NCBI GenBank assembly: GCA_025360665.1
Contig: JANYBU010000288.1
Coordinates: 5,855 to 69,854 of the forward strand
Source of the DNA: Nitrospira sp.
Lineage (GTDB): Bacteria > Nitrospirota > Nitrospiria > Nitrospirales > Nitrospiraceae
DNA: 64,000 nt
Direction: 5' to 3'
Shown: positions 31,628 through 63,270 of the stretch, one piece after another
Numbering within the stretch: position 1 is the first letter of the stretch
How the letters are laid out: the number at the start of each line of letters is the position of its first letter
Notes under the pieces: generated by a model
The model's input: only the letters and a program-made list of their open reading frames with translations
The model's database searches: none
Told to the model about the DNA's origin: nothing
Translations under genes and position numbers: made by a program

Positions 31628-32377
31628 ATGGATAATATTGCAACACAACCAAGTCGAGCGGTAGGCCCCGCACTCGAAGTGCAGCGTGAACGGATCATCA
31701 AAGAGTTCGCGCATATTGTGAAGGCGATGGCCCATCGTCTGGCCTTCCGCTTGCCGGCCTATATGGACGCGGAAGACCTCGTCTCAGTCGGCGTCATTGG
31801 ATTGATGGATGCGATGGATAAGTACGACCCTACTCGGGAAGCCAAGTTTAAGACCTATGCGGAGTTTCGTATTCGGGGTGCCATGCTGGATGAAATTCGT
31901 TCCATGGACTGGATTCCTCGTTCGGTTCACGAGCGTGTCTCGTTGTTGCAACGCACGCACACCGAGCTCATGAACAGACTCGGCCGACCACCGACAGATG
32001 AGGAAGTCGCGGCACAATTAAAGATGACCCAAGTCGAGCTCGACGATTTTCTTTCGCGCGCGCGCGGAGCTGTGCTGGTCAGTTTGGACGATATCCAGGT
32101 GAACGAACCGGACGGGCAGAAGATTCTCACCATGCTCGCCGACACACGTCAGCCCGACCCGCTCGCCACCATGCTCGGTGAACGGGTACGCACGACGGTG
32201 ACCAATGCGATCCAGCAATTGCCGGAGAAGGAACGTCTCGTGCTCACCCTGTACTACTATGAAGAGCTCACGATGAAGGAAATCGGCCGCATTCTGAAAG
32301 TCACAGAATCTCGCGTGTGTCAGATCCATACCAAAGCGGTCTTGCACCTCAAGGGGAGCCTTCACGTGCTGCGATGA
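31628..32377 (+). CDS. fliA: Flagellar sigma factor sigma28 (FliA)
   Basis: 249 aa. Region 2 (KFKTYAEFRIRGAMLDEIR) and region 4 HTH (LTMKEIGRILKVTESRVCQIHTKAVLHLK). It occupies the canonical position after flhG. Confidence 0.9.
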   Translation: MDNIATQPSRAVGPALEVQRERIIKEFAHIVKAMAHRLAFRLPAYMDAEDLVSVGVIGLMDAMDKYDPTREAKFKTYAEFRIRGAMLDEIRSMDWIPRSVHERVSLLQRTHTELMNRLGRPPTDEEVAAQLKMTQVELDDFLSRARGAVLVSLDDIQVNEPDGQKILTMLADTRQPDPLATMLGERVRTTVTNAIQQLPEKERLVLTLYYYEELTMKEIGRILKVTESRVCQIHTKAVLHLKGSLHVLR

Positions 32378-32428: not shown

Positions 32429-32480
32429 CGTAGTGTTCGTTCGATGCCGCTGTTGCTCGTTGCGCTGTGTCCCTCGGCCC

Positions 32481-32506
32481 TCAAGTCCTCCTGCCATCAG
32501 CCGAAA
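32481..32506 (+). promoter_or_regulatory. Sigma28-like promoter upstream of the degenerate GGDEF gene
   Basis: cCTCAAG-tcctcctgccatca-GCCGAAA has TCAA-N15 spacing. The -10 differs from GCCGATA at one position. It has the same CTCAAG -35 as five other sites in the window. Confidence 0.45.
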
Positions 32507-32628
32507 CAGTCAGTGGTTGATTGTTCACTGACACGTATTCGGAATCCTTGACGATCCACATGCCCGCGTACATTGAACGGTTCTTGTCTCCTTCGAATGC
32601 CATGTTGGCAGGTGAGGGGGTGGGTGCT

Positions 32629-33327
32629 ATGGCCATGTCTCCTTTTCTACTGGGCCTCATCGGGCTCTGCCTTCTCAGTCTCCTGATCCTGGGAGGACTG
32701 TGGCTCAAAGGCCAACATCCGAAGCATGGATTCCGTCGCGGTAGGTCTACGGAGAAACCTATAGAGATGTCATCAACCTATGACAGCGTGACGGGCTTGC
32801 CTACCAGACGGTTGTTCGGGACGTTACTCGAACAATCGGTCGGTCGTGCCGCAAAAACCGGACGATCCATCGCGCTGCTCGTGGTAGAGCTGGAACACTT
32901 TCGGATGGTGGCAGAGAGTCAAGGCCAAGCGAATAGCAATGTGCTCGTTCGCGTCCAGGCAGCCAGGGTCAAGGGCGTCTTGCGTTCCACGGAAACGATC
33001 GGGCGGCTGGCGCAGGATCAATTCGCGATGATTCTCGACAACCTCACTTCCCCTGATGAGGTAACGGCCATTGTGGCGAAACTGCAGGCGACGGTGGGGC
33101 TACCTCTCACCTTGGACGGACATGAGCTGTTCCTGACCTGCCGGATTGGTGTCGCACTGTACCCGGAGGATGCCAGGGAACATGAGGGGTTGATCACACA
33201 GGCCATCCAAGCAGTGAGGACAGCGAAGTCTGAGGGGCAGGCCGTTCGATTTACCTCGCCCACCGTTTCGTCAGCCGCCTCTCAGTCAATCCCCGTGGCG
33301 TCCTCATTCGTCGATCTTCGCCCCTAA
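32629..33327 (+). CDS. Membrane-anchored degenerate GGDEF-domain protein
   Basis: One TM segment (SPFLLGLIGLCLLSLLILGGLW), then a GGDEF fold (YDSVTGLPTRRLF...ALLVVELEHFRMV...). The active-site GG(D/E)EF is replaced by AQDQF (nt 33010-33024), and the I-site RxxD is replaced by RSTE. I prefer the start at ATG 32629 behind GGTGAGGGGG. Alternatives are 32521 and 32560. Confidence 0.8.
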   Translation: MAMSPFLLGLIGLCLLSLLILGGLWLKGQHPKHGFRRGRSTEKPIEMSSTYDSVTGLPTRRLFGTLLEQSVGRAAKTGRSIALLVVELEHFRMVAESQGQANSNVLVRVQAARVKGVLRSTETIGRLAQDQFAMILDNLTSPDEVTAIVAKLQATVGLPLTLDGHELFLTCRIGVALYPEDAREHEGLITQAIQAVRTAKSEGQAVRFTSPTVSSAASQSIPVASSFVDLRP

Positions 33328-38401: not shown

Positions 38402-38857
38402 ATGTACATCTACACGCAGGAATCAGAGGGCTTTATCTTGAATCACGATCTTACAGGGCTCAGTTCTATAAGACAGACGGCTGATGCTCAATTGAGCTTC
38501 TCGCAGCCTGCAATACTAAGAACGCAGGAGCGGCAAGCAGGGATGGCCTCTCTCAATAATGCCGCGCAGGAATTTGAAAGTTATTTTATCGCTAATCTAT
38601 TGAAAGTTATGAGAGAAACGGTTCCAAAAGTGGCTGTAGACAATAAAGGCGGCGCCTATTTTTACTCGTTTTACGACCAGGAGATCGGCCGCCTAGCAGC
38701 AGAGTCTGGCGGGCTTGGATTGGCCAGATTGATTCATGAATATACGGAAAAAAACTCATTTCTCCCCTCAAGTTTTCAGGCTCACAAGCCGATAGAGGAG
38801 CCGACAGGTATTAATGCCCCAGTTCCAGTAGCACGCACTCAGAGTATTCGGGGCTAA
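38402..38857 (+). CDS. flgJ: Rod-binding FlgJ-like protein (single domain, no muramidase)
   Basis: 151 aa. AAQEFESYFIANLLKVMRETVPK...FYSFYDQEIGRLAAESGGLGLARLI matches the FlgJ N-terminal rod-binding domain. No glucosaminidase or peptidase domain follows. The gene looks AT-richer than its neighbours by eye. Confidence 0.8.
   Translation: MYIYTQESEGFILNHDLTGLSSIRQTADAQLSFSQPAILRTQERQAGMASLNNAAQEFESYFIANLLKVMRETVPKVAVDNKGGAYFYSFYDQEIGRLAAESGGLGLARLIHEYTEKNSFLPSSFQAHKPIEEPTGINAPVPVARTQSIRG
38768..38794 (+). promoter_or_regulatory. Sigma28 promoter upstream of flgM (inside the 3' end of flgJ)
   Basis: cCTCAAG-ttttcaggctcacaa-GCCGATAGAG (TCAA-N16-GCCGATA). flgM carries a sigma28-dependent promoter in the enteric paradigm. 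Confidence 0.65.
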
Positions 38858-38879: not shown

Positions 38880-39182
38880 ATGCAGATCTCAGGTCATGGC
38901 AGAGCCGATCATCTTGCCACACTGCTGCTCGGTGCCCAGGAGGGCGCTCCGGTCGGGCCGAATCGTCGCACATCTAGCGATGGTCGCAAAGATCGCGTGC
39001 AGATCTCTCAGCAGGCGAAGGAGATTCAACGGATTAGGGCCTTAGCGGATCAGCCGGACGCCGCACGTGAAGCACGCATCGAGCAGATTAGCCGGTCGGT
39101 GGAGGCCGGCACGTACAATGTTGCAGGGCGCAAGGTCGGGGATGCGGTCATTCGTCACGCATTGACCGACGCGGCGCTCTAA
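38880..39182 (+). CDS. flgM: Anti-sigma28 factor FlgM
   Basis: 100 aa. C-terminal RIEQISRSVEAGTYNVAGRKVGDAVIRHAL is typical of FlgM. It sits upstream of flgN. Confidence 0.85.
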   Translation: MQISGHGRADHLATLLLGAQEGAPVGPNRRTSSDGRKDRVQISQQAKEIQRIRALADQPDAAREARIEQISRSVEAGTYNVAGRKVGDAVIRHALTDAAL

Positions 39183-39272
39183 TCCGTCCTCTCTCTGTTT
39201 CGGGGAACCGATCTGAGCAGAAGGCGGCAGAGGCCCATACTGACTGAGACGAAACCCGACAGAAAGAGGCAC

Positions 39273-39782
39273 ATGTCCAACACCGCGTCCGCTGCCGCTT
39301 CCATTCTCGATATCTTCACTCGTGAAGAAGCCCACTGCGATCTGCTGCATCAGACCCTGCAACAGGAACGGAACGCCATCCGCCGGCTGTCCGTAACAGA
39401 ATTCCCCACGCTCAACGAGCAGCGGCTCAGCAATCTCCAACAGCTCCAATCTTTAGAGTCTGAACGTGCGGCAGTGGTTAATCGCTTCGCCGATGCCTGG
39501 GGCCTTCCCCGCACAACTGTCACGTTGCAGGCCATCATCGATCGGCTCGACATGGGGGACAAGCAAAACGTCGAGCGATGCCACGAGCGGCTCGCGGAGA
39601 AAGTCCGTGTGTTGCGCCAAGAAACCGCTGTGAATGGGTTGCTCGTGGCCGGCATCCAAACGCTGTGCCGCAAGGCGATGCATCTCACAGGCGAGGCCCT
39701 TCCGAAGCGGGACACCTATTCAGCGTCCGGGGAATCTCAACGCGTAGGGATCGGTGGCACCATGCTCAGGCAAAGAGGATAA
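39273..39782 (+). CDS. flgN: FlgN-family export chaperone (for FlgK/FlgL)
   Basis: 169 aa, helical. The FlgN-like N-terminus reads LLHQTLQQERNAIRRLSVTEFPTLNEQRLSNLQQLQSLE. It sits between flgM and flgK. Confidence 0.7.
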   Translation: MSNTASAAASILDIFTREEAHCDLLHQTLQQERNAIRRLSVTEFPTLNEQRLSNLQQLQSLESERAAVVNRFADAWGLPRTTVTLQAIIDRLDMGDKQNVERCHERLAEKVRVLRQETAVNGLLVAGIQTLCRKAMHLTGEALPKRDTYSASGESQRVGIGGTMLRQRG

Positions 39783-39791
39783 AGACGCATC

Positions 39792-41816
39792 ATGGGACTC
39801 GATGGATTACTCGATATCGGAAAAAGCGCACTCAGTGTCGCGCAACAGGCGCTGACAGTTACCGGTCACAACGTCGCCAATATCAACACGCCGGGCTATT
39901 CCCGGCAGGAGGCGGTAGTAACCGAACGGTCTCCGGTGGGTGGAAATCCAGGCCAGGTGGGAACCGGCGTCCAGGTCACACAGATCCGGCGCATCGTCGA
40001 CAGTTTTATCAACCGGGAAATTACGGCTTCCAATTCAGTGATCGGTCAACTCAACATCTCCAATGATCAATTGTCCCAGATCCAGAATATTTTCGGCGAT
40101 TCCAATAATCAAGGGATCGGCACGCAACTGACCGATTTTTTCAGTAGTCTCCAGGATGTTGCCTCAAGCCCCTCCGACGTCACCCCGCGCTCGGTGCTGC
40201 TGTCTAAAGCGAACTTTCTCACCAGCGGGTTTAATCAAGTGGCCGGCGAACTGTCTGCGCGTCGGAGCTCCGTGAACGATCAAGTGAAACAGACGATCAC
40301 CGAAATCAACAGCCTGACTTCGCAGATTGCAGAGCTGAACGGAAAGATCGTGTCCGCAGAGATGACAGGACAGAATGCCAACGATTTGCGCGATCAACGG
40401 GATCAGGCCATCAACGACCTGGCACAGCGCGTTGACATCTCGGTGATCGACGGGGGAAACGGTGCGGTATCCGTGTTTGTCGGGCGGGGTCAGGTGGTCG
40501 TCGAAAATACTATTTCGCGCAACCTGGTCGGCGTGGCCACGCTGGACAACGGTGGCATGGCGAACGTCCAATACGACATGGGGAATGGCAAGTCGATAGA
40601 CATTTCCTCGCTCATTTCAGGTGGCAAGCTCGCAGGTCTTCTCACGATCCGCGACACGATTATCCCGGGGCTTCAAACCTCCTTCGATAAGCTCTCGGCC
40701 AGCCTCGTGAACGAGGTCAACCAGATCCATCGGCAAGGGTACGGGCTCGACGGGTCGACGGGGCTCGATTTCTTCTCGCCGCTCACCGTGACGACGCATG
40801 ACAAGTCTACCAATCAGGGCAGCGCCACTCTCGCGAGCGGACCGATTACCGCGAACAGCCTGCTGACACTTCAGGATTACGAAATCAAATTTTCGACCCC
40901 GACCAGTTACTCCATCGTCAATACGACGACTGGGGCGACCATCAAGGGGAACTATACCGGCACCCCTGTCACGGCACCGAGCGCGGATGTGCCGGTGAAC
41001 ATCGTGACAGGAACCAACGACACAGTAGCGGTCACCGTTGATGGAACCGCGTCCGGAACGATCACCTTGACAGGGGCTGCCTCGCCGGGACAATCGTACA
41101 CGAGTGGAGCCTCCCTGGCGGCGGAGTTGCAAACGAAGATTAATGCGGATGCCACCCTCTCAGCGGCGGGGAAAAGTGTCGCGGTCACCTATGACACGAC
41201 GACCAGCCGCTTCATTATCACTTCGAACGCCTCGACAGCGGCCTCCGCGGTCAATGTCACCGGGGGGACTGCGCAAGCCACACTTGGGCTTAGCGCTGGA
41301 ACCAGCACGGCCGCGTCAGGAACCTATGCCGGCCCACAAACATTCGCGATCGACGGTATACAGGTGACCTTAAGCGGGACAGCCGCGACCAATGACGTGT
41401 TCTCCTTCAATTCCTACAGCGATACGGCTAAGTCGATCAGCATGTCACTGACGAGCGCCGGCAAGGTCGCCGCGTCTTCAACCAGGGCCGGTGTTCCCGG
41501 TAATAACGATATTGTGATGGCGCTGGTCGCCTTGCAAACAAAAGCCTTATCCACCCTTGGCAGTGCTACGTTCAACGACGCCTATCGAACTGCCGCCACC
41601 GGCGTGGGAGTGGCGGCTCAATCCGCGAATGGCAAACTCCAGGCCCAAACGATGCTGCAAGAGCAATTAGACTCGTTCAGGGCCCAGTCGTCCGGCGTCT
41701 CGATCGATGAGGAACTGGTCAATGTCATGAAGTATCAGCGTGCATTTGAGGCGGCATCCCGGCTCATTATCGCGACGGACGAGATGCTACAAACGTTGCT
41801 GGACTTGAAGAAGTAA
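39792..41816 (+). CDS. flgK: Hook-filament junction protein 1 FlgK
   Basis: 674 aa. N-terminal LLDIGKSALSVAQQALTVTGHNVANINTPGYSRQ and C-terminal SGVSIDEELVNVMKYQRAFEAASRLIIATDEMLQTLLDL. Confidence 0.95.
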   Translation: MGLDGLLDIGKSALSVAQQALTVTGHNVANINTPGYSRQEAVVTERSPVGGNPGQVGTGVQVTQIRRIVDSFINREITASNSVIGQLNISNDQLSQIQNIFGDSNNQGIGTQLTDFFSSLQDVASSPSDVTPRSVLLSKANFLTSGFNQVAGELSARRSSVNDQVKQTITEINSLTSQIAELNGKIVSAEMTGQNANDLRDQRDQAINDLAQRVDISVIDGGNGAVSVFVGRGQVVVENTISRNLVGVATLDNGGMANVQYDMGNGKSIDISSLISGGKLAGLLTIRDTIIPGLQTSFDKLSASLVNEVNQIHRQGYGLDGSTGLDFFSPLTVTTHDKSTNQGSATLASGPITANSLLTLQDYEIKFSTPTSYSIVNTTTGATIKGNYTGTPVTAPSADVPVNIVTGTNDTVAVTVDGTASGTITLTGAASPGQSYTSGASLAAELQTKINADATLSAAGKSVAVTYDTTTSRFIITSNASTAASAVNVTGGTAQATLGLSAGTSTAASGTYAGPQTFAIDGIQVTLSGTAATNDVFSFNSYSDTAKSISMSLTSAGKVAASSTRAGVPGNNDIVMALVALQTKALSTLGSATFNDAYRTAATGVGVAAQSANGKLQAQTMLQEQLDSFRAQSSGVSIDEELVNVMKYQRAFEAASRLIIATDEMLQTLLDLKK

Positions 41817-41833
41817 CGCAGAGAGATGAGGCT

Positions 41834-44302
41834 ATGAGAGTCACCGAACAACAGACCTACAACCTTCTGGTCAATAGCATTCAGCGTGCTAGAGCGAAGG
41901 CGCTGGCGACGCAGGTGCAAATTTCATCCGGCAAGAAAGTAGTCCAACCGTCTGATGACGCCAGCGCGTTTGACCGCATCGTGTCGACCAAAGCCTCGAT
42001 TGGGAAAGTTGACCAACACGTCCGCAACCTTGACGTCGCCACGACTCGCCTTGACCTGACGGACAGCACGTTGAGCGGTGTGACAAACGTCCTGGCACGG
42101 ATCAAGGAACTCGCCGTTCAGTTTGCCAGCAGCACGAATGGTCCTTCCGACCGGGAGATCGGCGCGCAGGAAGTGAAACAGCTCTTCCTCCAGCTCCAAC
42201 AACTTGGGAACACTGAATATGCCGGGGGGCAATCGGTCTTCAGCGGCACCAGCCGGAATGGGCGTGCCACGGGTGTCTCCATTACCGCCCCCGTCGCACT
42301 GACAAGCGGCACCAATGATTCACTGATTGTTAAGGTCGATGGGACTACGTCCGGAACGATTACCCTCGGGACCGCATCACTGAGCGGTTCCGGATTGGCC
42401 GCACTCGTACAAAGCAAGATTAATGCGGATGCCACCCTGTCAGCGGCAGGAAAAAGCGTAACGGTGACCTTCGACACCGATCATCTCGTCGTCACATCAA
42501 ACAATAACGGCCAGACGTCCTCAGTCGAAGTTATCGGCGGAAGCGGCCTCACGAGTCTCGGCTTCAACGGCGGCAGCACGACCACGGGGTTTTCTCCCTT
42601 TGCCCTCCGCGCTTCGACGAGTGTCGGTGCGCGGAATACGGTCGGCGGCGCCGCGATCTCGCAAGGGACGGTGCAGAACCAGAACGCCGCCACCCTCAAC
42701 GACTATCTGGTGAAGTTCAGCGCCGCGACCACATTCGATGTCTACAACGTTTCCACGGCCGTGAATGTCGTGGCGAACAGCACGAATACCGGAGGCGCGG
42801 TGAAGAGCGACAGCGGCGTGGTCGATACCAGCCGCGTGACACTGGACAACTACGAGGTACGATTGAAGAATATCTATACGGTGACGGCCGGGACCAATGA
42901 CGGGATTCAATTCGATCCCGGCACGGGCCCGGTGACGGCAACGCTGGCCCCCGGCGTGTATACCGGCGCCCAACTTGCTGTCCAGGTTAAGGCCGCCATG
43001 GAGGCGGTAAGCGGGGGGACGACCTACACGGTCGGCTTTAACGAGACCACCGGCAAGTTTGATATCACAAACAATGGGAGCAACGCGACGGCTCTGAGCC
43101 TTCTGTACTCCAACGCGGCTTCGACAGCCAAGTCATTGCTTGGTTCGTCCGGAACCGACCAAAGCGCCATTGCGGTTGGTAGCACCGCGACGAGCAATGT
43201 GGATACGACCGGGTTGGCCGGAGTATCCAAGCAATCGAACGTGTACGATACCACCCTCGCGACCAACATCTTCAACATCACCTCGTCCAATAACAAGTTG
43301 ATCGTCAACGATACGGCGGGTGGGGCCGGAGCCGATACGACGATTACACTGTCTCTTGGCAGCTATACCGGGGCGCAGCTGGCGACGGAGTTGGCGACGC
43401 AGTTGAACGCAAGCCGAGCCGCTGCCAATACGGTCGCCTACACGGTGTCATCCGGATCCGTTACGGCCGGCCGGTTCACGATCAACAACCCAGCCGGCAA
43501 TGCCAATTCGCTCATCATAAAGTTCGGCAATGCCGGCTCCACCGCCGCGCAGATCCTGGGCTCGACGGCCGCCACCGTGACGGAGACCGTGGGGGCCTCT
43601 GCCTCCACGCTGAACCACGATGCGGGCTATACGACGTATCTGTCCGGCGCGAGCATCGACTTCGACGGGCTTCGGGTCGTCCTGCAGGATGGGACAACGG
43701 GACCGCGCAACGGGGACGTGTTCACTGTCGCGCAAGCACGGAAAACGGTATTGTCGAATCAGTCCTATGTCTCCGGCGGCGCGATCGACATAGAGGGTCT
43801 GCGGTTCTCGCTTCGCGACGGCGCGACGGCTTCGGCAAGCGGCGATCTGTTCACGGTCCAGACGGGAGTGCAATACCAGGGCAATTCGGGACTGCAAACC
43901 ATCGAGATCGGCGACGGGCAGACGGTCAAGACCAATATGCCAGGGAATCAGATTTTTAGCGGCCCTACAACCGACCTCTTCAACTCCGTGAAAAACCTCG
44001 CCGCAGCGTTGAACGGCAACTATGGGGGGGGGATTCAACAAAGCTTAACCAACGTCGATGCAGCGGTGGATCAGGTCGCTATTGCGCAGGGTGAAGTCGG
44101 TGCGTTGTCCAATCAGCTCGTAACGACTAAGACAAGCCTCGATGACACCAAGACCTTTCTCACGACCATTCTCTCCAACAACGAAGATGTCGATCTGGTG
44201 GCAGCCATTTCGGAGTTGACGCTCCAGCAGCAAGCCATTCAAGCAGCGGGGGCAACCCTCAATCGTATTTTCGAAAGCTCCCTTCTCAACTTCTTGAAAT
44301 AA
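41834..44302 (+). CDS. flgL: Hook-filament junction protein 3 FlgL (unusually long, 822 aa)
   Basis: N-terminal MRVTEQQTYNLLVNSIQRARAKALATQVQISSGKKVVQPSDDASAF and C-terminal NEDVDLVAAISELTLQQQAIQAAGATLNRIFESSLLNFL are FlgL/flagellin-superfamily termini. It follows flgK. The central ~550 aa consist of repeated modules. Confidence 0.85.
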   Translation: MRVTEQQTYNLLVNSIQRARAKALATQVQISSGKKVVQPSDDASAFDRIVSTKASIGKVDQHVRNLDVATTRLDLTDSTLSGVTNVLARIKELAVQFASSTNGPSDREIGAQEVKQLFLQLQQLGNTEYAGGQSVFSGTSRNGRATGVSITAPVALTSGTNDSLIVKVDGTTSGTITLGTASLSGSGLAALVQSKINADATLSAAGKSVTVTFDTDHLVVTSNNNGQTSSVEVIGGSGLTSLGFNGGSTTTGFSPFALRASTSVGARNTVGGAAISQGTVQNQNAATLNDYLVKFSAATTFDVYNVSTAVNVVANSTNTGGAVKSDSGVVDTSRVTLDNYEVRLKNIYTVTAGTNDGIQFDPGTGPVTATLAPGVYTGAQLAVQVKAAMEAVSGGTTYTVGFNETTGKFDITNNGSNATALSLLYSNAASTAKSLLGSSGTDQSAIAVGSTATSNVDTTGLAGVSKQSNVYDTTLATNIFNITSSNNKLIVNDTAGGAGADTTITLSLGSYTGAQLATELATQLNASRAAANTVAYTVSSGSVTAGRFTINNPAGNANSLIIKFGNAGSTAAQILGSTAATVTETVGASASTLNHDAGYTTYLSGASIDFDGLRVVLQDGTTGPRNGDVFTVAQARKTVLSNQSYVSGGAIDIEGLRFSLRDGATASASGDLFTVQTGVQYQGNSGLQTIEIGDGQTVKTNMPGNQIFSGPTTDLFNSVKNLAAALNGNYGGGIQQSLTNVDAAVDQVAIAQGEVGALSNQLVTTKTSLDDTKTFLTTILSNNEDVDLVAAISELTLQQQAIQAAGATLNRIFESSLLNFLK

Positions 44303-44315
44303 GAGGTGGCGTCCC

Positions 44316-44341
44316 TCAAGAATTGTTGAAAGAGGCCGATA
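44316..44341 (+). promoter_or_regulatory. Sigma28 promoter upstream of csrA-fliW
   Basis: cCTCAAG-aattgttgaaagag-GCCGATAC (TCAA-N15-GCCGATA) starts 14 nt after the flgL stop, about 115 nt upstream of the csrA ATG. Confidence 0.65.
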
Positions 44342-44346
44342 CTATG

Positions 44347-44428: not shown

Positions 44429-44455
44429 CTGTGGCATTTGCCAGGGAAGGCATCA

Positions 44456-44701
44456 ATGTTGGTCCTTACGCGTCGGCGTGGAGAAGGCGTCACGATCGGC
44501 CCAACTATCCGGGTGGTCGTGCTCGGAATCAAGGGTGGCCAGATTCGTTTAGGGATCGAAGCGCCCCCTACGGTCGAGATCCATCGAGACGAAGTCTGTG
44601 CCAGAATTCAAGAAGAAAACCAATCGGCAGCCTGTACCGGGGTGGTTCCACTGGCTGCCTTCCGGCGTTTCCTGCCTACCGGGCGACGCTCAATTGCGTG
44701 A
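44456..44701 (+). CDS. csrA: Carbon storage regulator CsrA (flagellar-type)
   Basis: 81 aa from ATG 44456. MLVLTRRRGEGVTIGPTIRVVVLGIKGGQIRLGIEAPPTVEIHRDEV is the CsrA signature. The track start 44381 is an upstream extension. Confidence 0.95.
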   Translation: MLVLTRRRGEGVTIGPTIRVVVLGIKGGQIRLGIEAPPTVEIHRDEVCARIQEENQSAACTGVVPLAAFRRFLPTGRRSIA

Positions 44702-44710
44702 GGTACGATC

Positions 44711-45190
44711 ATGAAGTTTTCTTCGACTCGCTTCGGTGCACTTGAGGTGCCTGACAGCGCGATTCTGACCTTTCCCTCCGGCATCCTGGGATTTCCGGAC
44801 TGGAGCCGCTACGTCATTCTGGATTACGACACCGACGCGCCGTTCAAGTGGCTTCATTGTATTGAGGAATCAAGTCTGGCATTCGTCGTGCTCGATCCCG
44901 TCCTGTTCCATGCGAATTATCGGGTAGAGATCCCGGATGAAGTCTTGGCGGAAGTGAAGGGCACTGCTGCGGACGCTTTGACTCTGGCTGTCATTCTGAC
45001 CATTCCATCGGAGGATCCAGGCCGTATCACGGCAAATCTTCGCGGGCCACTCCTCATGAACCCCTCCACCAAGCTGTGTAAGCAGATGGTCCTCTCAGAC
45101 GAGTACCCAACCCGCTATCCGATTTTTGCCATGCCGAGTGTGCGCCAGTCCGTACAGACAGAGTCACGGTCCGAAGCCATTCCCGCCTAA
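44711..45190 (+). CDS. fliW: Flagellar assembly factor FliW (CsrA antagonist)
   Basis: 159 aa. FPSGILGFPDWSRYVILDYDTDAPFKWLHCIEESSLAFVVLDP... matches the FliW family. It is adjacent to csrA. Confidence 0.9.
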   Translation: MKFSSTRFGALEVPDSAILTFPSGILGFPDWSRYVILDYDTDAPFKWLHCIEESSLAFVVLDPVLFHANYRVEIPDEVLAEVKGTAADALTLAVILTIPSEDPGRITANLRGPLLMNPSTKLCKQMVLSDEYPTRYPIFAMPSVRQSVQTESRSEAIPA

Positions 45191-45320: not shown

Positions 45321-48197
45321 TTATGCAGCGGGCCTTCTGGCGTCGCGTTGGCGCCTGCGCTGCGCTTCCAGAATCCGAACAAGGCGAAGCACCGCAGCCT
45401 CAAGCTGGGTGTAGATCATCGGGGCATCGAGCAGCGTGCCGAGCCGTCCGAGTGCTTCCAACTGGCCGGCGGCCAAGACGACTTCCGGTGCGCAGAGATT
45501 CCCGGCGGTGCCTTTCAAGAGGTGGGCGGCTTCTTCGATGGCCCGTTGATCTCTACTGGCCAAGGTGGCGCGGATGTTCTCCAACATGGGCTGATAGCGC
45601 TGGAGAAACAGACCAATCAGCTGGTCCAACAGCTCCCGATCGCCGCCGATGTTTCGTAACATCGTGGCCCTATCAAAGATCACCGGGATGGCTTCAGCGC
45701 TATGCTCTGCGTTGGGGTGTGTGGCAATGCCGTCATCCGTGGCCTGCGAATGCCTGGATACCGGAATCCATCGATCGAGGATTCCTTTGAGGTCTTCTTT
45801 TCGTAGGGGCTTCGTTAAATAATCGTCCATACCGGCGGCGAGACAGCGCTCTCGATCTCCTTGCATGGCATTGGCCGTCAACGCGATGATCGGAATATGG
45901 CGTGCCAGGGTCGAGTCGGCTGCGGCAGATTCCTGAGCGGTTGCTTCACGCTGGCGAATGAGTCTGGTCGCCTCGAATCCATCGACGAGCGGCATCTGAC
46001 AGTCCATCAGGACCACGGCATAGGAGCCACGGCCCAATGCGGCCAGCGCTTCTTGACCGTTTTCCACGACGTCCGATTGGTAGCCGAGTTTCTCTAACAT
46101 GCGAACGGTCAGTTTCTGATTGATGAGATTGTCTTCAGCCACCAGGACGCGCGGGGCCGACAGTGTTTCTGCGAGGGTATGCCGTGTGATGAGCAGGGGG
46201 GCAGGCGCGATAACCGCTCTTGGCTTCCCTTCATTCACAAGTCCTGACAATCCCAGCACGGTTCTCAAACAGTTCGAGAGTTGATCGTGGCGGACTGGTT
46301 TGGTGAGATACGCGACGAATCCGGCTTGGCGCGCCAGTTCCGCATGCCCTCGCTGAACGAGTGAGGTGAGGATCACGAGACGGATGAGCGATCCAACAGG
46401 ATGGGCCTTCAGTTCTTTGGCGAGTTGTAATCCATCCTTGCCTGGCATCAACATATCGACGATGGCCACATCATAGAACAAGCCGTTCTCCGCTCGCTGC
46501 TCGATCAGCGCCATGGCTGCGGTGGCATCTGGGGCTTGATCGTCGACCATGCCCCATCCTGTGACCAGGTGATGGACAATCATCCTGTTCGATTCATTGT
46601 CGTCTACGATTAGTACGCGACGTGCGGTCAAATCGGCCGACGGCACGATGGCCAAGGGGGACGTCGTTTGTTTGAGGAAGTGAGCGGTGCACCAGAATGT
46701 GCTGCCGTGACCCGATCGACTGGTGATGCCGACGCTGCCGCCCATTTGTTCGGTGAGCTGTTTCGAAATCGCGAGCCCTAAACCGGTGCCCCCGTATTTG
46801 CGGGACGTCGAACTATCAGCTTGGGTAAACGGTTGGAAGAGGCGAGCCTGCACCTCCGGGGGGATACCGATGCCGCTATCGGTGACTTCGAACCGGATGA
46901 CCACCGCGTCGGCCAAGTCCTTCTCTAGAAAGGCTTGAACCGTCACGTCGCCCTTTTCAGTAAACTTGATCGCATTGCCGACGAAGTTCGTGAGAATCTG
47001 ACGGAGTCGCCCCGGATCGCCGCGGAGACCGGTCGGTACGGACGCATGCACCAGGCCGGTGATTTCCAGTCCTTTGGTCTGCGCCCGCTCCGCAAATTGA
47101 CCCAAGACATTTTCCACCGTCGTGCGAAGATTGAAGTCGATACATTCCAGTTCCAGTTTGCCGGCTTCGATCTTGCCGTACTCAAGAATATCGTTAATCA
47201 AGTTCAGTAAGGCCTCGCCGCACTGTCGAATCGTTTCGATATAGGATTGTTGTTCCTCCGAAGGCTCCGTATCCATCAATAAGTCCGTCATCCCAATGAC
47301 TCCATTCATCGGCGTCCGCAACTCGTGGCTCACGGTCGCCAGGAACGACGCCTTCACGCGAGCGGCATCCTGTGCTTCCTGGAGCGCCTGATCCAATTGA
47401 CGGTTGTTGTTGCGAAGGTGCTCGGCTGCCCGGCACAGCTCCTCTTGGGCCGCCTTGACCTCGGTCATATCCACCGCATACCCTCGGACCAATTGATGAG
47501 AAGGGACTGGGCAGAAAATCCACGTGAAACTTGCCTGAGGTAAGCAGACGTCCTCCCCCCGTATTTCCTGTCCTGATTCGAGGCAGCGTTGAACGAGCAG
47601 CGACAGTTCACGAGGAACCACGGCGGGAAATCCATGGGTGTCGTAGCCAAACTGCTTCAGCAACTGCGTCATCGCAGGATTCGCATAGATGAGGCTCGCA
47701 TCGGCGTCCAACTCGATAACAGGGGAAGGACTTTCTTCCGCCACGCGCACTAGGCGGTCGCGATCTTGCTGCAGCTCTCTCTCGTGAGTCAGGTCACGTA
47801 TCATCAACACCCCACCGGTGTCTCCCTGTGTGTCCAGTGGGGCATAGGTCCATTCAACCGGATATGATTCGTGTGTGGGGCCTGTGAGCGTCGTCTGGGC
47901 TTTTTGTATGGGGAGACGATCGGGAAGGGACTCGTGAATGCGTGTCACGATGTTGTGGCCGGATGTCCCAGGTCGCTGTCGCAATACTTCTTGGAGCGGT
48001 TTCGATGCGCAGAACTCAGCCGAGTGTCCCACGAGGCGGGCGGCTTCAGCGTTCACAGACAAGATGCGAAGCCGACTATCGAGCAGCACCATCCCGATCG
48101 GGAGCCTATCCAGCGTCGCATGGTTCAGAAAGTTCTGGAGCTTGGATGATCTCGAAGGGCGAGATGCCCTGGTGCGAATCTTTGTTGGAGGTTTCAT
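45321..48197 (-). CDS. Hybrid sensor histidine kinase (PAS-HisKA-HATPase-REC-REC-HPt)
   Basis: 958 aa. PAS-like segments, H-box SHELRTPMNGVIG, HATPase (GGTGLGLAISK), two receivers (VAIVDMLMPGKDG; VVLMDCQMPLVDG) and a C-terminal HPt (AHLLKGTAGNL). Confidence 0.9.
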   Translation of the reverse strand: MKPPTKIRTRASRPSRSSKLQNFLNHATLDRLPIGMVLLDSRLRILSVNAEAARLVGHSAEFCASKPLQEVLRQRPGTSGHNIVTRIHESLPDRLPIQKAQTTLTGPTHESYPVEWTYAPLDTQGDTGGVLMIRDLTHERELQQDRDRLVRVAEESPSPVIELDADASLIYANPAMTQLLKQFGYDTHGFPAVVPRELSLLVQRCLESGQEIRGEDVCLPQASFTWIFCPVPSHQLVRGYAVDMTEVKAAQEELCRAAEHLRNNNRQLDQALQEAQDAARVKASFLATVSHELRTPMNGVIGMTDLLMDTEPSEEQQSYIETIRQCGEALLNLINDILEYGKIEAGKLELECIDFNLRTTVENVLGQFAERAQTKGLEITGLVHASVPTGLRGDPGRLRQILTNFVGNAIKFTEKGDVTVQAFLEKDLADAVVIRFEVTDSGIGIPPEVQARLFQPFTQADSSTSRKYGGTGLGLAISKQLTEQMGGSVGITSRSGHGSTFWCTAHFLKQTTSPLAIVPSADLTARRVLIVDDNESNRMIVHHLVTGWGMVDDQAPDATAAMALIEQRAENGLFYDVAIVDMLMPGKDGLQLAKELKAHPVGSLIRLVILTSLVQRGHAELARQAGFVAYLTKPVRHDQLSNCLRTVLGLSGLVNEGKPRAVIAPAPLLITRHTLAETLSAPRVLVAEDNLINQKLTVRMLEKLGYQSDVVENGQEALAALGRGSYAVVLMDCQMPLVDGFEATRLIRQREATAQESAAADSTLARHIPIIALTANAMQGDRERCLAAGMDDYLTKPLRKEDLKGILDRWIPVSRHSQATDDGIATHPNAEHSAEAIPVIFDRATMLRNIGGDRELLDQLIGLFLQRYQPMLENIRATLASRDQRAIEEAAHLLKGTAGNLCAPEVVLAAGQLEALGRLGTLLDAPMIYTQLEAAVLRLVRILEAQRRRQRDARRPAA

Positions 48198-49537
48198 CAG
48201 GCCGCCTCCTCGTGAATACCGTCAAGAAACATGGCCACATTCACTCGTTCATGAACGGGATCCAGCACCTTCGTGATGGTTCGCATTGAAGCCCCTGTTG
48301 CCTGGGCTCCAAGATCGACGCGAATCGGCGTGAGATACGATCCCCCCTGTGGCCCAGTGATCACTTTCACGACCGGCTTGAGCCGCTGCGTGTGATTCAT
48401 CCCCACGACCACCGCCTGTTCTGCCGTGTTCAACAGGACTAGACTGCCGATCGGATACACGCCAAGACTGCCAATCATGGCTTGGATCAAATCCTTTGCA
48501 TACTGCCCTGTATCCCCAAGACGAAACAGCTGTCGGATAGCATCATGCGGCAGCATCGCCGGACGCCCTCCACGGCGGCTCACCATGCCGTCATAGGCGT
48601 CTACCAGGCCGACCAGTTGTGACAAGACTGAGAGGGAGTCTCCCTGGAGCTTGTGCGGGAACCCGCTCCCATTGCTGCACTCATGATGTTCCGCGACAAT
48701 TCGAACGACTGCCTTACGGTCCTCTTTTGCCTCCCGTAAGATCGCCAGTCCCAGTACTGGATGCTGTTGCATGAGCGTGCGCTCTTGCTCCGTGAGATCA
48801 TGGCTTTTACGGTACAGATTCCGCGGCAATCGGATATAGCCGATGTCGTGCAGCAACGCGCCGGCGCCGAGCGCTTCCAGCTTTCCCTCCGCAACCCCAT
48901 AGGCATGCGCCACAATGAGCGAGAGGGTACAGACATCGAGTGCGTGTGAGGCCAACGTGCGATCGAACCGCTTCATCTTTTGGAGAGAGAGAAGACTGAG
49001 CATGGCGGCGCCATCATCCAGCACACGGGAGAGTACATTCGTGACGACCATTCGCAACGTATCTGGGCGAGGTACGATGCCCGCTTCTAACTCTTCAAAC
49101 ATGCGCTCCATCGAACAGGTCGCTTCTGTGTAGGTCGCTTGGGCGGCCGCGGCATGCATCTGTGCGTTCGACGGCGAAGGCGCCTCTTCCTGCGTGACAG
49201 GCTGCTGCCGCTGCGCTGTTGTTCTCTCTGCGCTGTAGGCTGGCTGAGGAGCCTCTTCTGACAAGGCCGGCTTCACCTCCAGGCTTGGTTGGGGGGTGGC
49301 GGCTGCGTCCTGAGCGCTCGACGATGGCGGCGTGTCGCCTGACGGGACTGGCTCGACATCGAAACCTTGGCTAGGGTCGATCTTCACCTCTTTGATGCCA
49401 TGTCGTCGGAGGAGATCAATGTCCTCCTGGTGGCGGATGAGGCGTTTATGGAAGAGGAAGGGGGTCCGATGCCAAGGCAGGTCCACCTCAACCATGAACA
49501 TCCCCGGTCTGAGTTGATCGATCGTGATCGTTTTCAT
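48197..49537 (-). CDS. HD-GYP-domain c-di-GMP phosphodiesterase-type protein
   Basis: 446 aa. LLHDIGY (HD) and EHHECSNGSGFPHKL (a GYP-motif variant). Its stop overlaps the start of the hybrid kinase in an ATGA arrangement. Confidence 0.85.
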   Translation of the reverse strand: MKTITIDQLRPGMFMVEVDLPWHRTPFLFHKRLIRHQEDIDLLRRHGIKEVKIDPSQGFDVEPVPSGDTPPSSSAQDAAATPQPSLEVKPALSEEAPQPAYSAERTTAQRQQPVTQEEAPSPSNAQMHAAAAQATYTEATCSMERMFEELEAGIVPRPDTLRMVVTNVLSRVLDDGAAMLSLLSLQKMKRFDRTLASHALDVCTLSLIVAHAYGVAEGKLEALGAGALLHDIGYIRLPRNLYRKSHDLTEQERTLMQQHPVLGLAILREAKEDRKAVVRIVAEHHECSNGSGFPHKLQGDSLSVLSQLVGLVDAYDGMVSRRGGRPAMLPHDAIRQLFRLGDTGQYAKDLIQAMIGSLGVYPIGSLVLLNTAEQAVVVGMNHTQRLKPVVKVITGPQGGSYLTPIRVDLGAQATGASMRTITKVLDPVHERVNVAMFLDGIHEEAA

Positions 49538-49636: not shown

Positions 49637-49663
49637 TATCGGGATAAATAGGGCAGAACTTGA
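49637..49663 (-). promoter_or_regulatory. Sigma28-like promoter for the HD-GYP/hybrid-kinase operon
   Basis: The minus strand reads gGTCAAG-ttctgccctatttat-CCCGATAGC (TCAA-N16-CCCGATA), about 100 nt upstream of ATG 49537. Confidence 0.4.
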
Positions 49664-49731
49664 CCCAATTGAAGGGGATTCCAGCTCAACGTGCTGTGCT
49701 GGTTACCGTGACGCCGGCCCATCGTATCACC

Positions 49732-49757
49732 TCAAGATTCTCATCTCGGCACCGATA
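49732..49757 (+). promoter_or_regulatory. Sigma28-like promoter for the second HD-GYP/PilZ unit
   Basis: cCTCAAG-attctcatctcggc-ACCGATAGAG (TCAA-N15-ACCGATA). It is divergent from the minus-strand site at 49637-49663. Confidence 0.5.
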
Positions 49758-49835
49758 GAGTTCATCAGAACCCGTTGCTCTTTGATGAGACTCGGTGCCG
49801 CCGCTGTCCCGCATCCTCAGAGGACCATGCGAAAC

Positions 49836-51057
49836 ATGCGAAAACGGATTTCCATTGATCAGCTGAAAATCGGCATGAAGGTCGAGAAACTCGACCGCTC
49901 CTGGTTGGCTACGCCGTTCTTGCGTCATAAGTTCACGATTACGTCCTCAGAACAAATCGAGCAACTGCACGCCAGCGGTGTCCAACTACTTGATGTCGAT
50001 GCTGACGACGCATACCAGGACTCCGGCTCGTTCATACCAGCTATGGCAGCGGAGACTGAAACCCCTCAGCCGGCATCTCTACCCCTGGAGCCCGAACCGT
50101 CAGCCACCCGTTTGCCGAAGAGCTGCCCGCAGCACAACAGGCCTACAAGAGCGCTAAATTGATCATTCAACAGGCCATGGAAGACATCCGGATGGGTCGC
50201 GCGCTGAACATGGAGGCGGTCAGTGAAGTTGTCGGGAGCATGGCTGACAGCATCCTGCGCAGCCCTGACGCGCTCACCAGTCTGACGCGCCTCAAACAGT
50301 TCGACGAATACACCTTTTTTCACTCCGTCAACACCTCCATCCTGGCACTCTCGGTCGGGAGACATCTCGGGTATAGGCGCGCGCCACTGCTTCAGCTGGG
50401 AACCGGCATGTTGTTGCACGACATCGGTAAAACGCAAATCCCGATCGAGATTCTGAACAAGCTGGGGCGCTACGAGGCCGACGAGTTCGAGATCATGAAG
50501 CAACATGTCCTACGCGGGGCGGAGATCCTGTCGCACACCACCGGCCTCACCGATATGTTTCTGAAGCCCACCCTGGAGCATCATGAGCGGGTTGACGGGA
50601 CTGGGTACCCCCATCAACGATCCAGAACAGACCTCAGTCAGTTTGGCCGTATTGCCGCCATTGTGGACATTTATGATGCCGTGACGAGCGACCGTTGTTA
50701 TCACAAAGGGAAAACACCGCACGATACCCTTCAGATTCTCTATCAATTGGGTACTCGGGGCCATGTGGACGGAGAGCTGGTCCAACAGTTCGTGCAGGTC
50801 GTGGGGGTCTATCCCGTCGGTTCATGTGTCTCGCTCAATACGGGCGAGAGGGCGATCGTGAAGCAAGTCAATCACCACGCTCCACTACAACCCCTGGTCG
50901 TGCTGATCACGGATGAAGAGGAGCACGTGCGATCTAGCCCCGCGACCTCGACCTCGCCGCGCAGCTCCAAAAACCGAATCGGACAATCGCGTCGATTCTT
51001 GATCCAACCACCTTGGGGGTCAATCCTTGCCACTATCTTGATAAGGACGCCACATGA
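49836..51057 (+). pseudogene. HD-GYP paralog interrupted by two single-base frameshifts
   Basis: It consists of three colinear pieces in three reading frames.
- The N-terminus (MRKRISIDQLKIGMKVEKLDRSWLATPFLRHKF...) parallels the start of ORF 48197-49537.
- The HD-GYP core (LLHDIGK, LEHHERVDGTGYP) lies in the frame of ORF 50159-51199.
- The tail (PRDLDLAAQLQKPNRTIASILDPTTLGVNPCHYLDKDAT*) is in the third frame and parallels RVDLGAQATGASMRTITKVLDPVHERVNVAMFLD.
- The shifts lie within 50060-50105 and 50930-50945, both in C-runs. Confidence 0.75.
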
Positions 51058-51797
51058 CGGAACCAGAGTATGCCCCCGCACGTTCGTCGATTCTCATGGT
51101 CGGACTACCGCTCCAGCTGGTGATCGGGTCCGGCCAAGGCAAAGTGAACTGTGGATCCACATTGCTGGGCTGGAAAGAGAGGGCCTGGCTGATTTGTGAA
51201 TGGCCGTTTCATTTCGGGCAAGCCGTCCCCTGCGAAGCGGGCACTCGGTGTCTCGTTCGCTATCTGGTAGACGGTAAGCTCATCGGCTATGAAAGCGAAG
51301 TCTGCACCACCCAGACTTCTCCTGTCCCACTCCTGTATCTTGCGTTTCCGAAGACCGTCGAAGAAATCCACCTCCGTAAACATGTGCGCGTCCCCAGCAA
51401 TGAGCCGCTACTCCTGATACGTGTCGATGGGAGGGGGGCGGTCTGTGTCGATTCGAAGGGGGTTTCGACGATGGGCGGCCTCGTCCAGGACCTCAGTGTG
51501 GCTGGGTGTCGAGTGGTGTTTCAGCAATCGCGTCTCATCTTCCTCCTGGGCTCCACCGTCCACCTGGAATTCGAGTTGATCGGAATCGGGCACGTGAGCA
51601 ATCTCACCGGCGTGATCAAGAACGTGGCTGAACATGAGAATACGAAATCCATCGGCATCGAGTTTTGCTTCGATGGGAAGGAGTGCATCGAGTATCGCGG
51701 ATGGGGAGGTAGCGTACAGAAAGCCATTGAGCATGCCGTGCTGCAAAAGCAGCATACGCTCGACATGGCGCCCGATACGGTATCTGAATCACCCTAA
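51054..51797 (+). CDS. YcgR-like PilZ-domain c-di-GMP receptor
   Basis: 247 aa. RxxxR (LRKHVRV) and DxSxxG (DLSVAGC) PilZ motifs follow an N-terminal PilZN-like half. The ATG overlaps the frame-restored stop of the HD-GYP paralog (ATGA). Confidence 0.8.
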   Translation: MTEPEYAPARSSILMVGLPLQLVIGSGQGKVNCGSTLLGWKERAWLICEWPFHFGQAVPCEAGTRCLVRYLVDGKLIGYESEVCTTQTSPVPLLYLAFPKTVEEIHLRKHVRVPSNEPLLLIRVDGRGAVCVDSKGVSTMGGLVQDLSVAGCRVVFQQSRLIFLLGSTVHLEFELIGIGHVSNLTGVIKNVAEHENTKSIGIEFCFDGKECIEYRGWGGSVQKAIEHAVLQKQHTLDMAPDTVSESP

Positions 51798-51948: not shown

Positions 51949-52182
51949 TAGTTCCAGTTTCCCCGTGCGCCCCCTCGCCCGATCGCCGCATGTCCCGGAA
52001 TCATCTTGCCCGCTGACCGGAAATTTTTGCCTGGCAAGGCCAGCGTACAGCCGGCTATTCCGACAAAACCCCCGTCATCCACGCTGCCACAGGCTTCTGC
52101 CTGCGGCACGCGAATTGAACTCCGCGACATGTCTCTGGGCCGTGTTATTCGGGTGGTGACGAACCAAGATCATACCGGGCGC

Positions 52183-52208
52183 TCAAGTTTTTTTCAGGCT
52201 TGTCGATA
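52183..52208 (+). promoter_or_regulatory. Sigma28-like promoter at the head of the glycosylation island
   Basis: gCTCAAG-tttttttcaggctt-GTCGATAGAG (TCAA-N15-GTCGATA). It is strikingly similar to the flgM site, including TTTTCAGGCT in the spacer and GATAGAG. It lies about 30 nt before the first island ORF. Confidence 0.5.
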
Positions 52209-52239
52209 GAGTAATTACTCACTGTATGAATGGTGGCCC

Positions 52240-52851
52240 TTGGCGAAAACCGTACAGAACTTTTACAGACCAACCCCCGCGAGGCGTGAACTGCTGGCAT
52301 TGCGGTCATTGGCTGAAATCGAACAGATCAGCCAGCACGAACTCGGCAGACAAATCGGGGTCAGCAGTGCCATGGCGCATAACTACGTACAAGCCTTGGT
52401 GGACCAGGGCTATGTCATGACGAGCGGCGAGACGAATCGGACTATGCGATACCTCGTGACGGCCACAGGGCGAAGGCGCTTGGCTACGCTGATGCAGGAG
52501 TACGCGAGTGAAATCGCGCGCATGTATTCAATCGCCAAGACCGAAGTGGAAAAGCGGCTCCACCAACTGTGGAAAGAAGGGATCCAGGCGATCGTGGTCT
52601 TCGGGGCAGCGGAGACGGGTGAGTTGATCTATAGCGCCGTGAAAGCCACTCCCATGCGTATCGTCGGCTGGGTCGATAACGATGTTGCGAAACATCAGCA
52701 ACGATTCGGATACCTGACCGTGTGCCCACCCGACACCATTGAATCTTGTCGCCCGGACGCGGTGCTCATTGCCTCCTCCGGCAAGACGGAGGACATCCAT
52801 CGGCAGCTGCGCCATCTTTCGAAGAAAGGGATCGCCGTTGTCACCCTCTAA
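52240..52851 (+). CDS. Winged-helix (MarR/TrmB-like) DNA-binding protein with C-terminal Rossmann-like domain
   Basis: 203 aa with a TTG start. wHTH segment ISQHELGRQIGVSSAMAHNYVQALVDQGYV. The C-terminal AIVVFGAAETGELIY...IVGWVDND...DAVLIAS pattern resembles nucleotide-binding N-domains seen in sugar-modifying enzymes. Confidence 0.6.
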   Translation: MAKTVQNFYRPTPARRELLALRSLAEIEQISQHELGRQIGVSSAMAHNYVQALVDQGYVMTSGETNRTMRYLVTATGRRRLATLMQEYASEIARMYSIAKTEVEKRLHQLWKEGIQAIVVFGAAETGELIYSAVKATPMRIVGWVDNDVAKHQQRFGYLTVCPPDTIESCRPDAVLIASSGKTEDIHRQLRHLSKKGIAVVTL

Positions 52852-53905: not shown

Positions 53906-53924
53906 ACAGAAGGAGGGTAGGCGA

Positions 53925-55947: not shown

Positions 55948-55950
55948 GTC

Positions 55951-57190: not shown

Positions 57191-57244
57191 AGAAGCAGTC
57201 AGCCGCAGCGATGAGCTAAGAGCTGATAGCTCAAGGAGAAGAAG

Positions 57245-58846: not shown

Positions 58847-58855
58847 GAGGCACAG

Positions 58856-63251: not shown

Positions 63252-63270
63252 CCTTAGCGAAAGGACTCCC

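Follow-up and report, generated by a model that had tools for sequence, protein, structure and literature searches.

Six sites of the general form CT(C/T)AAG, a spacer of 14-15 nt and (G/A)CCGATA precede late flagellar genes, genes of cyclic di-GMP (c-di-GMP) signalling and a flagellin glycosylation island in a 64-kb stretch of Nitrospira sp. [quoted passage not shown] This reading is supported because the motif precedes late flagellar genes in sense orientation and because the same gene cluster encodes both FliA and FlgM, the anti-sigma-28 factor. The sites were first listed in a sequence-only reading of this DNA, and all six are present where, and on the strands on which, it had placed them. 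Its central proposal, a putative FliA regulon in which these sites join the glycosylation island and the c-di-GMP genes to late flagellar genes, is supported by the enrichment of the motif, by its placement, by footprints in related genomes and by the occurrence of the motif before flagellin and fliD in relatives.

The pattern TCAAG-N13-17-CGATA occurs six times in the window, where 0.41 occurrences are expected, and none of 100 dinucleotide shuffles reached six. The alternative pattern T[CTA]AAG-N13-15-NNCGATA is likewise matched six times against 0.34 expected, with a shuffle maximum of two. Five of the six strict matches belong to the six main sites, and the remaining one, at 7866-7890, had not been noticed before; the site upstream of the degenerate GGDEF gene is missed by the strict expression, as it carries CCGAAA and not CCGATA. 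A two-block weight matrix, trained solely on orthologous sites of other genomes, assigns 23.2-35.1 bits to the six main sites, as compared with 16.8 bits for the best match in 30 shuffled windows, so that a gap of more than 6 bits separates them from the null maximum. Five of the sites are intergenic and the flgM site is located in the last 90 nt of flgJ, in keeping with the earlier description of correctly oriented sites between genes or at gene ends, and from the end of each of the six it is 31-122 nt downstream to a start codon in the same orientation. The window is only 6.6% non-coding, and the co-oriented zone within 130 nt upstream of a start codon makes up 6.2% of the position-by-strand space, which gives P ~6e-8 for this placement.

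The -10 boxes of the six sites read GCCGATA (twice), ACCGATA, CCCGATA, GTCGATA and GCCGAAA, and their CGA core is invariant in all orthologues. The spacer measures 14 nt at four sites and 15 nt at two, and its length is constant within each orthologous group. It had also been claimed that the flgM and glycan-island sites share spacer sequence, and TTTTCAGGCT is truly common to both; its T-run, however, belongs to an extended -35 element that is already part of the consensus for E. coli/Pseudomonas (TAAAGTTT), so that the sharing is largely no extra feature.

Related Nitrospira DNA was collected from three sources, namely a FlgK scan (loci L001-L006), a scan of metagenomes for which the PilZ protein was the query (50 loci, 60-97% identity) and look-ups of HDOD, PseB and GGDEF homologues, giving about 65 loci and 0.77 Mb in all. 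Among these loci, all six sites are kept at the same positions with invariant boxes and drifting spacers and flanks, and are thus phylogenetic footprints across Nitrospira. In L001-L006 the coding DNA is about 80% identical to that of the window, and the intergenic DNA is often unalignable. The 50 PilZ-centred loci (516 kb) contain 94 matches to the pattern, where 7.7 are expected, nearly all of them at orthologous positions; as these loci are homologous, the counts argue for maintenance by selection and not for independent origin.

At the flgM site, which lies 85 nt before the flgM ATG, CT(C/T)AAG and ACCGATAGAG are invariant in L001-L005 with varying spacers, and the site is also kept in distant loci (L047, L066, L083, L094-L096), even where FlgK is only about 50% identical. 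The csrA-fliW site begins 13 nt past the flgL stop codon; its boxes are conserved (alignment A2), the leader behind them differs by 0-200 nt from one genome to another, and the site is kept in L037, L040, L047 and L064 as well. In the same alignment, a conserved CTGTGGCATTTGCCAGGGAAGGCATCAATG is found directly before the csrA ATG at 44456 (window 44425-44458), with GGA motifs over the ribosome-binding site, and this looks like a candidate site of CsrA autoregulation. The degenerate-GGDEF site is situated in the intergenic region between fliA and the GGDEF gene, where CTCAAGTC and CCGAAAC are invariant in six genomes (alignment A11) and spacer and flanks diverge; the deviant A of the -10 box is itself conserved in these six genomes. 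In the N. lenta metagenome-assembled genome (MAG) locus L005 the degenerate GGDEF gene is absent, and flgF follows fliA almost directly.

The region between the two divergent HD-GYP transcription units could be compared in 22 non-identical intergenic regions (alignment A5). Its invariant columns are TATCGG, AACTTGA, CTCAAGATT and CCGATAGAG, which correspond exactly to the two -10 and two -35 boxes of the divergent promoters, and CTCAAGATT and CCGATAGAG of the HD-GYP2/PilZ promoter are invariant or nearly so in the 22 loci. Between the promoters (window 49664-49731), at about -45 to -75 of both, a further conserved block with the consensus GAAGGAAATTCC..CAACGTGCTGT is seen, which could be the binding site of an additional regulator. 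A palindrome, GGAANTTCC, was considered as a shared regulator site and rejected, as it shows no enrichment elsewhere in the window and is present here only as an imperfect copy. Roughly the first 30 nt past the HD-GYP2/PilZ -10 box (TCCATCAG…GTTGCTGTTCGATG; window 49760-49800, alignment A10) show good sequence conservation; the idea that this leader begins with a conserved hairpin was dropped, as RNAalifold yielded a stem of 4 bp only with little covariation. The glycan-island site, finally, ends with its -10 box 31 nt before the first island gene and is present in about 11 island-bearing relatives (L034-L043, L067, L090, L091), in which TCAAG and TTAAG interchange.

Two further matches did not join this group. 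The sequence-only reading had named a weaker seventh site before the HDOD gene, but this site is doubtful: it lies inside the null range, is by its score not distinguishable from chance and shows in relatives a small footprint with CCGACAA and variable -35 boxes; moreover, HDOD is not a c-di-GMP domain as such. The 7866 match is located within a histidine-kinase gene, 90 nt upstream of a sigma-54 activator gene. As an internal promoter of that activator it was rejected, since L084 has a disrupted form (CTGATA) and L087-L089 lack it altogether, and it is probably a chance hit.

The flagellin gene, whose upstream region had been expected to be the best match of a wider scan, was not found within the window. 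A tblastn search of the PilZ-centred Nitrospira loci with an approximate B. subtilis Hag query gave FlgL as the sole match, and the left flank beyond HDOD in relatives contains no flagellin, only metabolic and bactofilin genes. To walk past the right end of the window, proteins encoded there were looked up by exact match, which yielded no record for the PseB-like protein and contigs of just 2-3 kb for the epimerase. The gene was reached via contigs with close PseB homologues (L090, L091, L093), in which the island is followed by flagellin-flaG-fliD-fliS. Upstream of flagellin, about 170-210 nt before its ATG, these three relatives carry TTAAG or TAAAG, N15 and GCCGATA, and the gap between flaG and fliD contains TCAAG or TTAAG, a 14-15-nt spacer and CCCGATA or GCCGATA. 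In L090 and L091, the island-head, flagellin and fliD sites are the sole three pattern matches in about 20 kb. The expectation therefore held as to the presence of the motif; the flagellin site is not the top-scoring one, because the second position of its -35 box is T or A and not C. The occurrence of the motif before flagellin and fliD in relatives indicates that it marks archetypal sigma-28 targets.

In these three contigs, the island continues with genes for a giant Maf-TPR protein of 881-890 aa, a sialidase-like BNR protein and a flagellin that is long at 612-640 aa, followed in order by flaG, fliD, fliS and a small ORF (L090 11092-19024; L091 11085-21071; L093 11106-21044). In L091 and L092 another PilZ-domain gene follows after the small ORF of the continuation.

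The FliA of the cluster scores 266 bits on TIGR02479 (cut-off 189.6) and passes the FliA subfamily cut-offs too; its best relatives of solved structure are WhiG, P. aeruginosa FliA and E. coli FliA. FlgM matches Pfam PF04316 with 49.8 bits (cut-off 25). In the open complex of the P. aeruginosa enzyme, the fliC promoter presents TCTAAAG (-36 to -30), N14 and GCCGATAA (-15 to -8), and the region 4.2 residues S224 and Q228 of FliA contact the -35 box (PMC12784957). The equivalents of both residues are conserved in Nitrospira FliA, as ESRVCQIH. The Nitrospira sites share the 14-15-nt spacing with this promoter, and the main difference concerns position -33, where C or T is found instead of A. The local -35 box is thus T(C/T)AAG, one base off TAAAG: in 768 kb of Nitrospira DNA, the TCAAG variant was observed 104 times with 2.9 expected and the TTAAG variant 13 times with 1.0 expected. 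According to E. coli chromatin immunoprecipitation sequencing (ChIP-seq), FliA binds flgKL at TCAAGTCC…GCCGATAAT (TCAAG) and ycgR at TTAAGTTT…ACCGATAAA (TTAAG) (PMC4183435), so that T(C/T)AAG falls within the known functional range of FliA. The sigma-28-type layout that had been ascribed to the sites is supported by the CGA core, the spacing and these E. coli variants. In the literature that was searched, no work on sigma-28 promoters of Nitrospira turned up. Loci of Opitutaceae and Pelagicoccus (Verrucomicrobiota; L013-L016 and L026, at about 2750-2790) have a conserved canonical GAGTAAAGTTCTC-N-CCGATAGGAGAG some 7.2 kb upstream of flgK; this TAAAG site has the textbook form of a sigma-28 promoter and contrasts with the TCAAG form of Nitrospira.

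The claim that the motif wires every c-di-GMP gene holds for the four such genes of this window and within the window only. The degenerate GGDEF protein starts with a membrane segment at its N terminus, and AQDQF replaces its GGDEF motif. HD-GYP1 (48197-49537, minus strand) is intact and possesses the HD motif, but reads HHECSNGSGFP; as GFP replaces GYP, its phosphodiesterase activity is not assured and its part in c-di-GMP degradation is putative. In HD-GYP2 the HD and GYP motifs are canonical, but the reading frame is broken twice, near 50107 and near 50943, in both cases by 1-nt deletions relative to the intact orthologues in L034, L035, L040 and L064, so that it is either a pseudogene or an assembly error. 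In L047, L066 and L083, HD-GYP2 is mostly deleted, and the promoter and the downstream PilZ gene remain. The site assigned earlier to the HD-GYP paralog and PilZ is therefore conserved as a promoter, but since HD-GYP2 is frameshifted or deleted while promoter and PilZ gene stay, the conserved cargo of this promoter at 49732 is the YcgR-type PilZ brake. This protein contains PilZNR and PilZ domains with the motifs RKHVR (RxxxR) and DLSVAG (DxSxxG). The candidate phosphodiesterases behind the motif are HD-GYP proteins and not EAL proteins.

The glycosylation island encodes, in this order, an HTH regulator, a GFO oxidoreductase, a DegT aminotransferase, a cytidylyltransferase, Maf, a radical SAM protein, a NeuB/PseI-like protein, a 2-epimerase, an epimerase, a PseB-like protein and a second Maf, with PseB-like, DegT, NeuB/PseI-like, CTP_transf_3 and MptE-like/Maf hits in Pfam and NCBIfam. 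As PseB and PseI score too low for the equivalog cut-offs, the sugar can be assigned to the class of the nonulosonic acids and not to an exact compound.

Table 1. Predicted promoters, weaker matches and genes of the window (scores in bits of the two-block weight matrix)
Feature	Position	Strand	Description
Degenerate-GGDEF promoter	32480..32507	+	CTCAAG, 14-nt spacer, GCCGAAAC (variant -10); 30.0 bits
flgM promoter	38767..38795	+	CTCAAG (38767-38772), 15-nt spacer, GCCGATAG (38788-38795); 35.1 bits
csrA-fliW promoter	44315..44342	+	CTCAAG, 14-nt spacer, GCCGATAC; 25.3 bits
HD-GYP1/hybrid histidine kinase promoter	49637..49664	-	GTCAAG, 15-nt spacer, CCCGATAG; 23.2 bits
HD-GYP2/YcgR-type PilZ promoter	49731..49760	+	CTCAAG, 14-nt spacer, ACCGATAGAG; 29.0 bits
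Glycan-island promoter	52182..52211	+	CTCAAG, 14-nt spacer, GTCGATAGAG; 33.8 bits
HDOD candidate weak site	930..956	-	TTACAG, 14-nt spacer, GCCGATAA; 9.3 bits
7866 match	7866..7890	+	exact TCAAG-N15-CGATA, 13-nt spacer; 12.1 bits
fliA (sigma-28 gene)	31628..32377	+	TIGR02479 FliA_WhiG
Degenerate GGDEF protein	32629..33327	+
flgM-flgN-flgK-flgL	38880..44302	+	predicted sigma-28 transcription unit; Pfam, tight gene spacing
csrA-fliW	44456..45190	+	CsrA: TIGR00202 above cut-off; FliW: FliW families
DUF3391-HD-GYP1 and PAS/hybrid histidine kinase/Hpt gene	45321..49537	-	start and stop codons overlap
HD-GYP2 and YcgR-like PilZ	49782..51797	+	HD-GYP2 49782-51199; PilZN and PilZ 51054-51797
Flagellin glycosylation island	52240..64000	+	more than 12 kb, runs past the window end; Pfam and NCBIfam

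The window (58% G+C) carries a near-complete flagellar gene cluster according to Pfam and NCBIfam assignments. At its left end the HDOD gene is encoded on the minus strand, followed by a LuxR-type response regulator, a sigma-54 activator, a TPR protein, a histidine kinase and a second sigma-54 activator. The order then is flgBC-fliEFGHIJ-fliK-flgDE-fliLMNOPQR-flhBA-flhF-flhG-fliA, the degenerate GGDEF gene, flgFGAHIJ, flgM-flgN-flgK-flgL and csrA-fliW; the right part contains the hybrid histidine kinase and the DUF3391-HD-GYP gene on the minus strand and HD-GYP2, the YcgR-type PilZ gene and the glycosylation island on the plus strand. In a genome scan, FlgK relatives of 80-90% identity were confined to Nitrospira and Nitrospiraceae genomes, including the N. 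lenta MAG, which identifies the window as part of a Nitrospira chromosome. No known RNA family reached the gathering score in the window. Next to HDOD, loci L086-L089 carry two bactofilin genes directly upstream on the same strand (about 8700-9990), which are missing from the window and from L084, and L086 has unrelated genes in place of the flagellar regulators.

Several observations weigh against the reading of the sites as FliA promoters. The related loci are homologous, so that the conservation counts do not represent independent events. The flgM site is part of the flgJ coding sequence, and coding constraint could explain part of its conservation; at the HD-GYP2/PilZ and GGDEF sites the spacers are also rather conserved, which makes the footprint less box-specific there. 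The canonical TAAAG is nearly absent from the 768 kb of Nitrospira DNA (two observed, 1.0 expected), and the GGDEF -10 box CCGAAA is non-consensus. In addition, most FliA-bound sites in E. coli have no detectable transcript (PMC4183435), and a good motif is thus no guarantee of activity.

The last two points would also fit the view that only the classical late-flagellar sites (flgM, csrA-fliW, flagellin, fliD and perhaps the glycan island) are active, whereas the GGDEF, HD-GYP and PilZ sites are weakly bound or silent and their genes are expressed mainly from other promoters or by other regulators. The conserved block between the divergent HD-GYP promoters suggests such an additional regulator, and HD-GYP2 is decaying here and in other genomes. 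However, the c-di-GMP sites are the best conserved of the dataset: in the 22 divergent regions the four boxes are the sole long invariant stretches, the GGDEF boxes are held with their deviant base included, and selection is not expected to hold silent sites. Direct precedent exists, moreover, in E. coli and Pseudomonas, where FliA controls both a phosphodiesterase and a PilZ protein of the YcgR/FlgZ type. We therefore think that a restriction to the classical sites is unlikely.

Considerably less probable still is that the motif is read by a factor other than FliA, be it another alternative sigma factor or a regulator such as the LuxR-type response regulator or a sigma-54 activator. The -35 box is one base off the textbook TAAA, and several regulators are indeed encoded in the cluster. 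Yet the GCCGATA -10 box, the 14-15-nt spacing and the strict orientation are a sigma-28 signature, both TCAAG and TTAAG have been proven as -35 variants of E. coli FliA (PMC4183435), and the motif precedes the archetypal sigma-28 targets flgM, flagellin and fliD. Furthermore, the motif is asymmetric, unlike typical dimeric regulator sites, and sigma-54-type GG-N10-GC patterns are not enriched in the window, where they do not exceed chance at two mismatches. That the recurrence is an accident of chance or composition, as the behaviour of the 7866 match and the HDOD site might suggest, has a negligible probability and is already refuted by the observed count, the score gap, the placement and the orthologous conservation in dozens of genomes.

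For the preferred reading, that of FliA-dependent promoters, we infer the binding of FliA, the start sites, the timing and what the c-di-GMP proteins do as enzymes. The six sites would be recognized by RNA polymerase equipped with the FliA of the cluster itself, with region 4.2 reading the -35 box CT(C/T)AAG(T), a local form of the canonical CTAAAG(TTT), and regions 2.4 and 3 reading the extended -10 box (G/A)CCGATA(G/C) at a distance of 14-15 nt. Transcription would start a few bases downstream of CGATA and would yield the units flgM-flgN-flgK-flgL, csrA-fliW, degenerate GGDEF, HD-GYP1 with the hybrid histidine kinase, (HD-GYP2)-YcgR-like PilZ and the flagellin glycosylation island. By analogy with the relatives, flagellin and fliD-fliS would also be driven just past the window. 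As FlgM would itself be a target, the regulon may be held off by FlgM and released upon its removal, which in the Salmonella/Vibrio paradigm is its export through the finished hook-basal body. The prediction of the sequence-only reading that the regulon is switched on only after completion of the hook-basal body is accordingly an extrapolation from the Salmonella FlgM-export model.

The closest known design is that of E. coli, in which FliA targets include flgMN, flgKL, fliC, fliD, the phosphodiesterase gene yhjH/pdeH and the PilZ brake gene ycgR (PMC4183435). The class 3 promoters of E. coli and Salmonella resemble the sites described here in their layout (a -35 box of TAAAG type, about 14 nt and GCCGATA) and in the targeting of FlgM itself, and at flgKL and ycgR their -35 box reads TCAAG and TTAAG. 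They differ in that TCAAG is the norm in Nitrospira and a minority variant there, and in that CGATA is followed by G or C in Nitrospira and by A there. Furthermore, the phosphodiesterase candidates of Nitrospira are of the HD-GYP and not of the EAL type, the promoter is also found before the hybrid histidine kinase, the degenerate GGDEF gene, csrA-fliW and the glycosylation island, and the upper regulatory tiers appear to be sigma-54 activators instead of FlhDC.

Pseudomonas is similar in that its cluster is of the polar-flagellate kind, contains flhF-flhG(fleN)-fliA together with sigma-54 activators and has the gene order flgL - glycosylation island - fliC-flaG-fliD-fliS, but it belongs to another phylum, and Nitrospira has HD-GYP in place of an EAL phosphodiesterase, and csrA-fliW. 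The FliA consensus of P. putida is reportedly TCAAG-t-N12-GCCGATA (Rodriguez-Herva 2010). For the glycosylation island of Pseudomonas, we know of no report that a direct sigma-28 promoter stands at its head. FliA of Pseudomonas controls the phosphodiesterase BifA (P. putida bifA) and a YcgR-like PilZ protein, encoded by flgZ (PMC5300878, PMC6093933).

In B. subtilis and C. difficile, the sigma-28 orthologue SigD likewise drives flgM and hag/fliC. SigD of B. subtilis is reported to drive flgM, hag and a late operon with fliW-csrA (Yakhnin 2007); the order in Nitrospira is, in contrast, csrA-fliW. In a C. difficile sigD mutant, flagellar glycosylation genes are down 11-50-fold and no SigD promoter was found at the cluster (PMC3865298), whereas Nitrospira has a conserved site 31 nt upstream of the first island gene. 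Each link of the regulon thus has precedent, and a known design (FliA acting on PdeH and YcgR in E. coli) is extended to a distant phylum without a new mechanism. New are the phylum, the predominance of TCAAG, HD-GYP instead of EAL proteins, a hybrid kinase and a degenerate GGDEF protein among the predicted targets, a pair of divergent promoters kept throughout the genus and a conserved promoter placed directly before the first gene of the glycosylation island.

Nitrospira are the main nitrite oxidizers, some of them complete ammonia oxidizers. They are important for the treatment of wastewater, for drinking-water filters and for soils, and flocs and biofilms are where they mostly live. They grow slowly and, to our knowledge, are without routine genetics, and their transcriptional control is almost unstudied. 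The model CT(C/T)AAG, 14-15 nt, (G/A)CCGATA allows late flagellar promoters to be annotated in hundreds of Nitrospira genomes. It also provides a short, testable list of non-structural genes that are predicted to be co-expressed with the filament (the YcgR-type brake, HD-GYP, the hybrid kinase, degenerate GGDEF, CsrA-FliW and the flagellin sugars), and it offers a case of a flagellin glycosylation island with its own conserved, predicted sigma-28 promoter. Tentatively, and with less than even confidence, we propose that a genus-wide Nitrospira FliA with a shifted -35 preference (TCAAG) directly drives a divergent c-di-GMP module (HD-GYP and hybrid kinase on one side, HD-GYP and the YcgR-type brake on the other, with a candidate regulator site between them), the degenerate GGDEF gene and the whole flagellin-sugar pathway. 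If this is true, the decision to swim or to settle in these biofilm-forming nitrifiers would be hard-wired to the checkpoint of flagellar assembly, and a signal sensed by the PAS hybrid kinase would modulate it.

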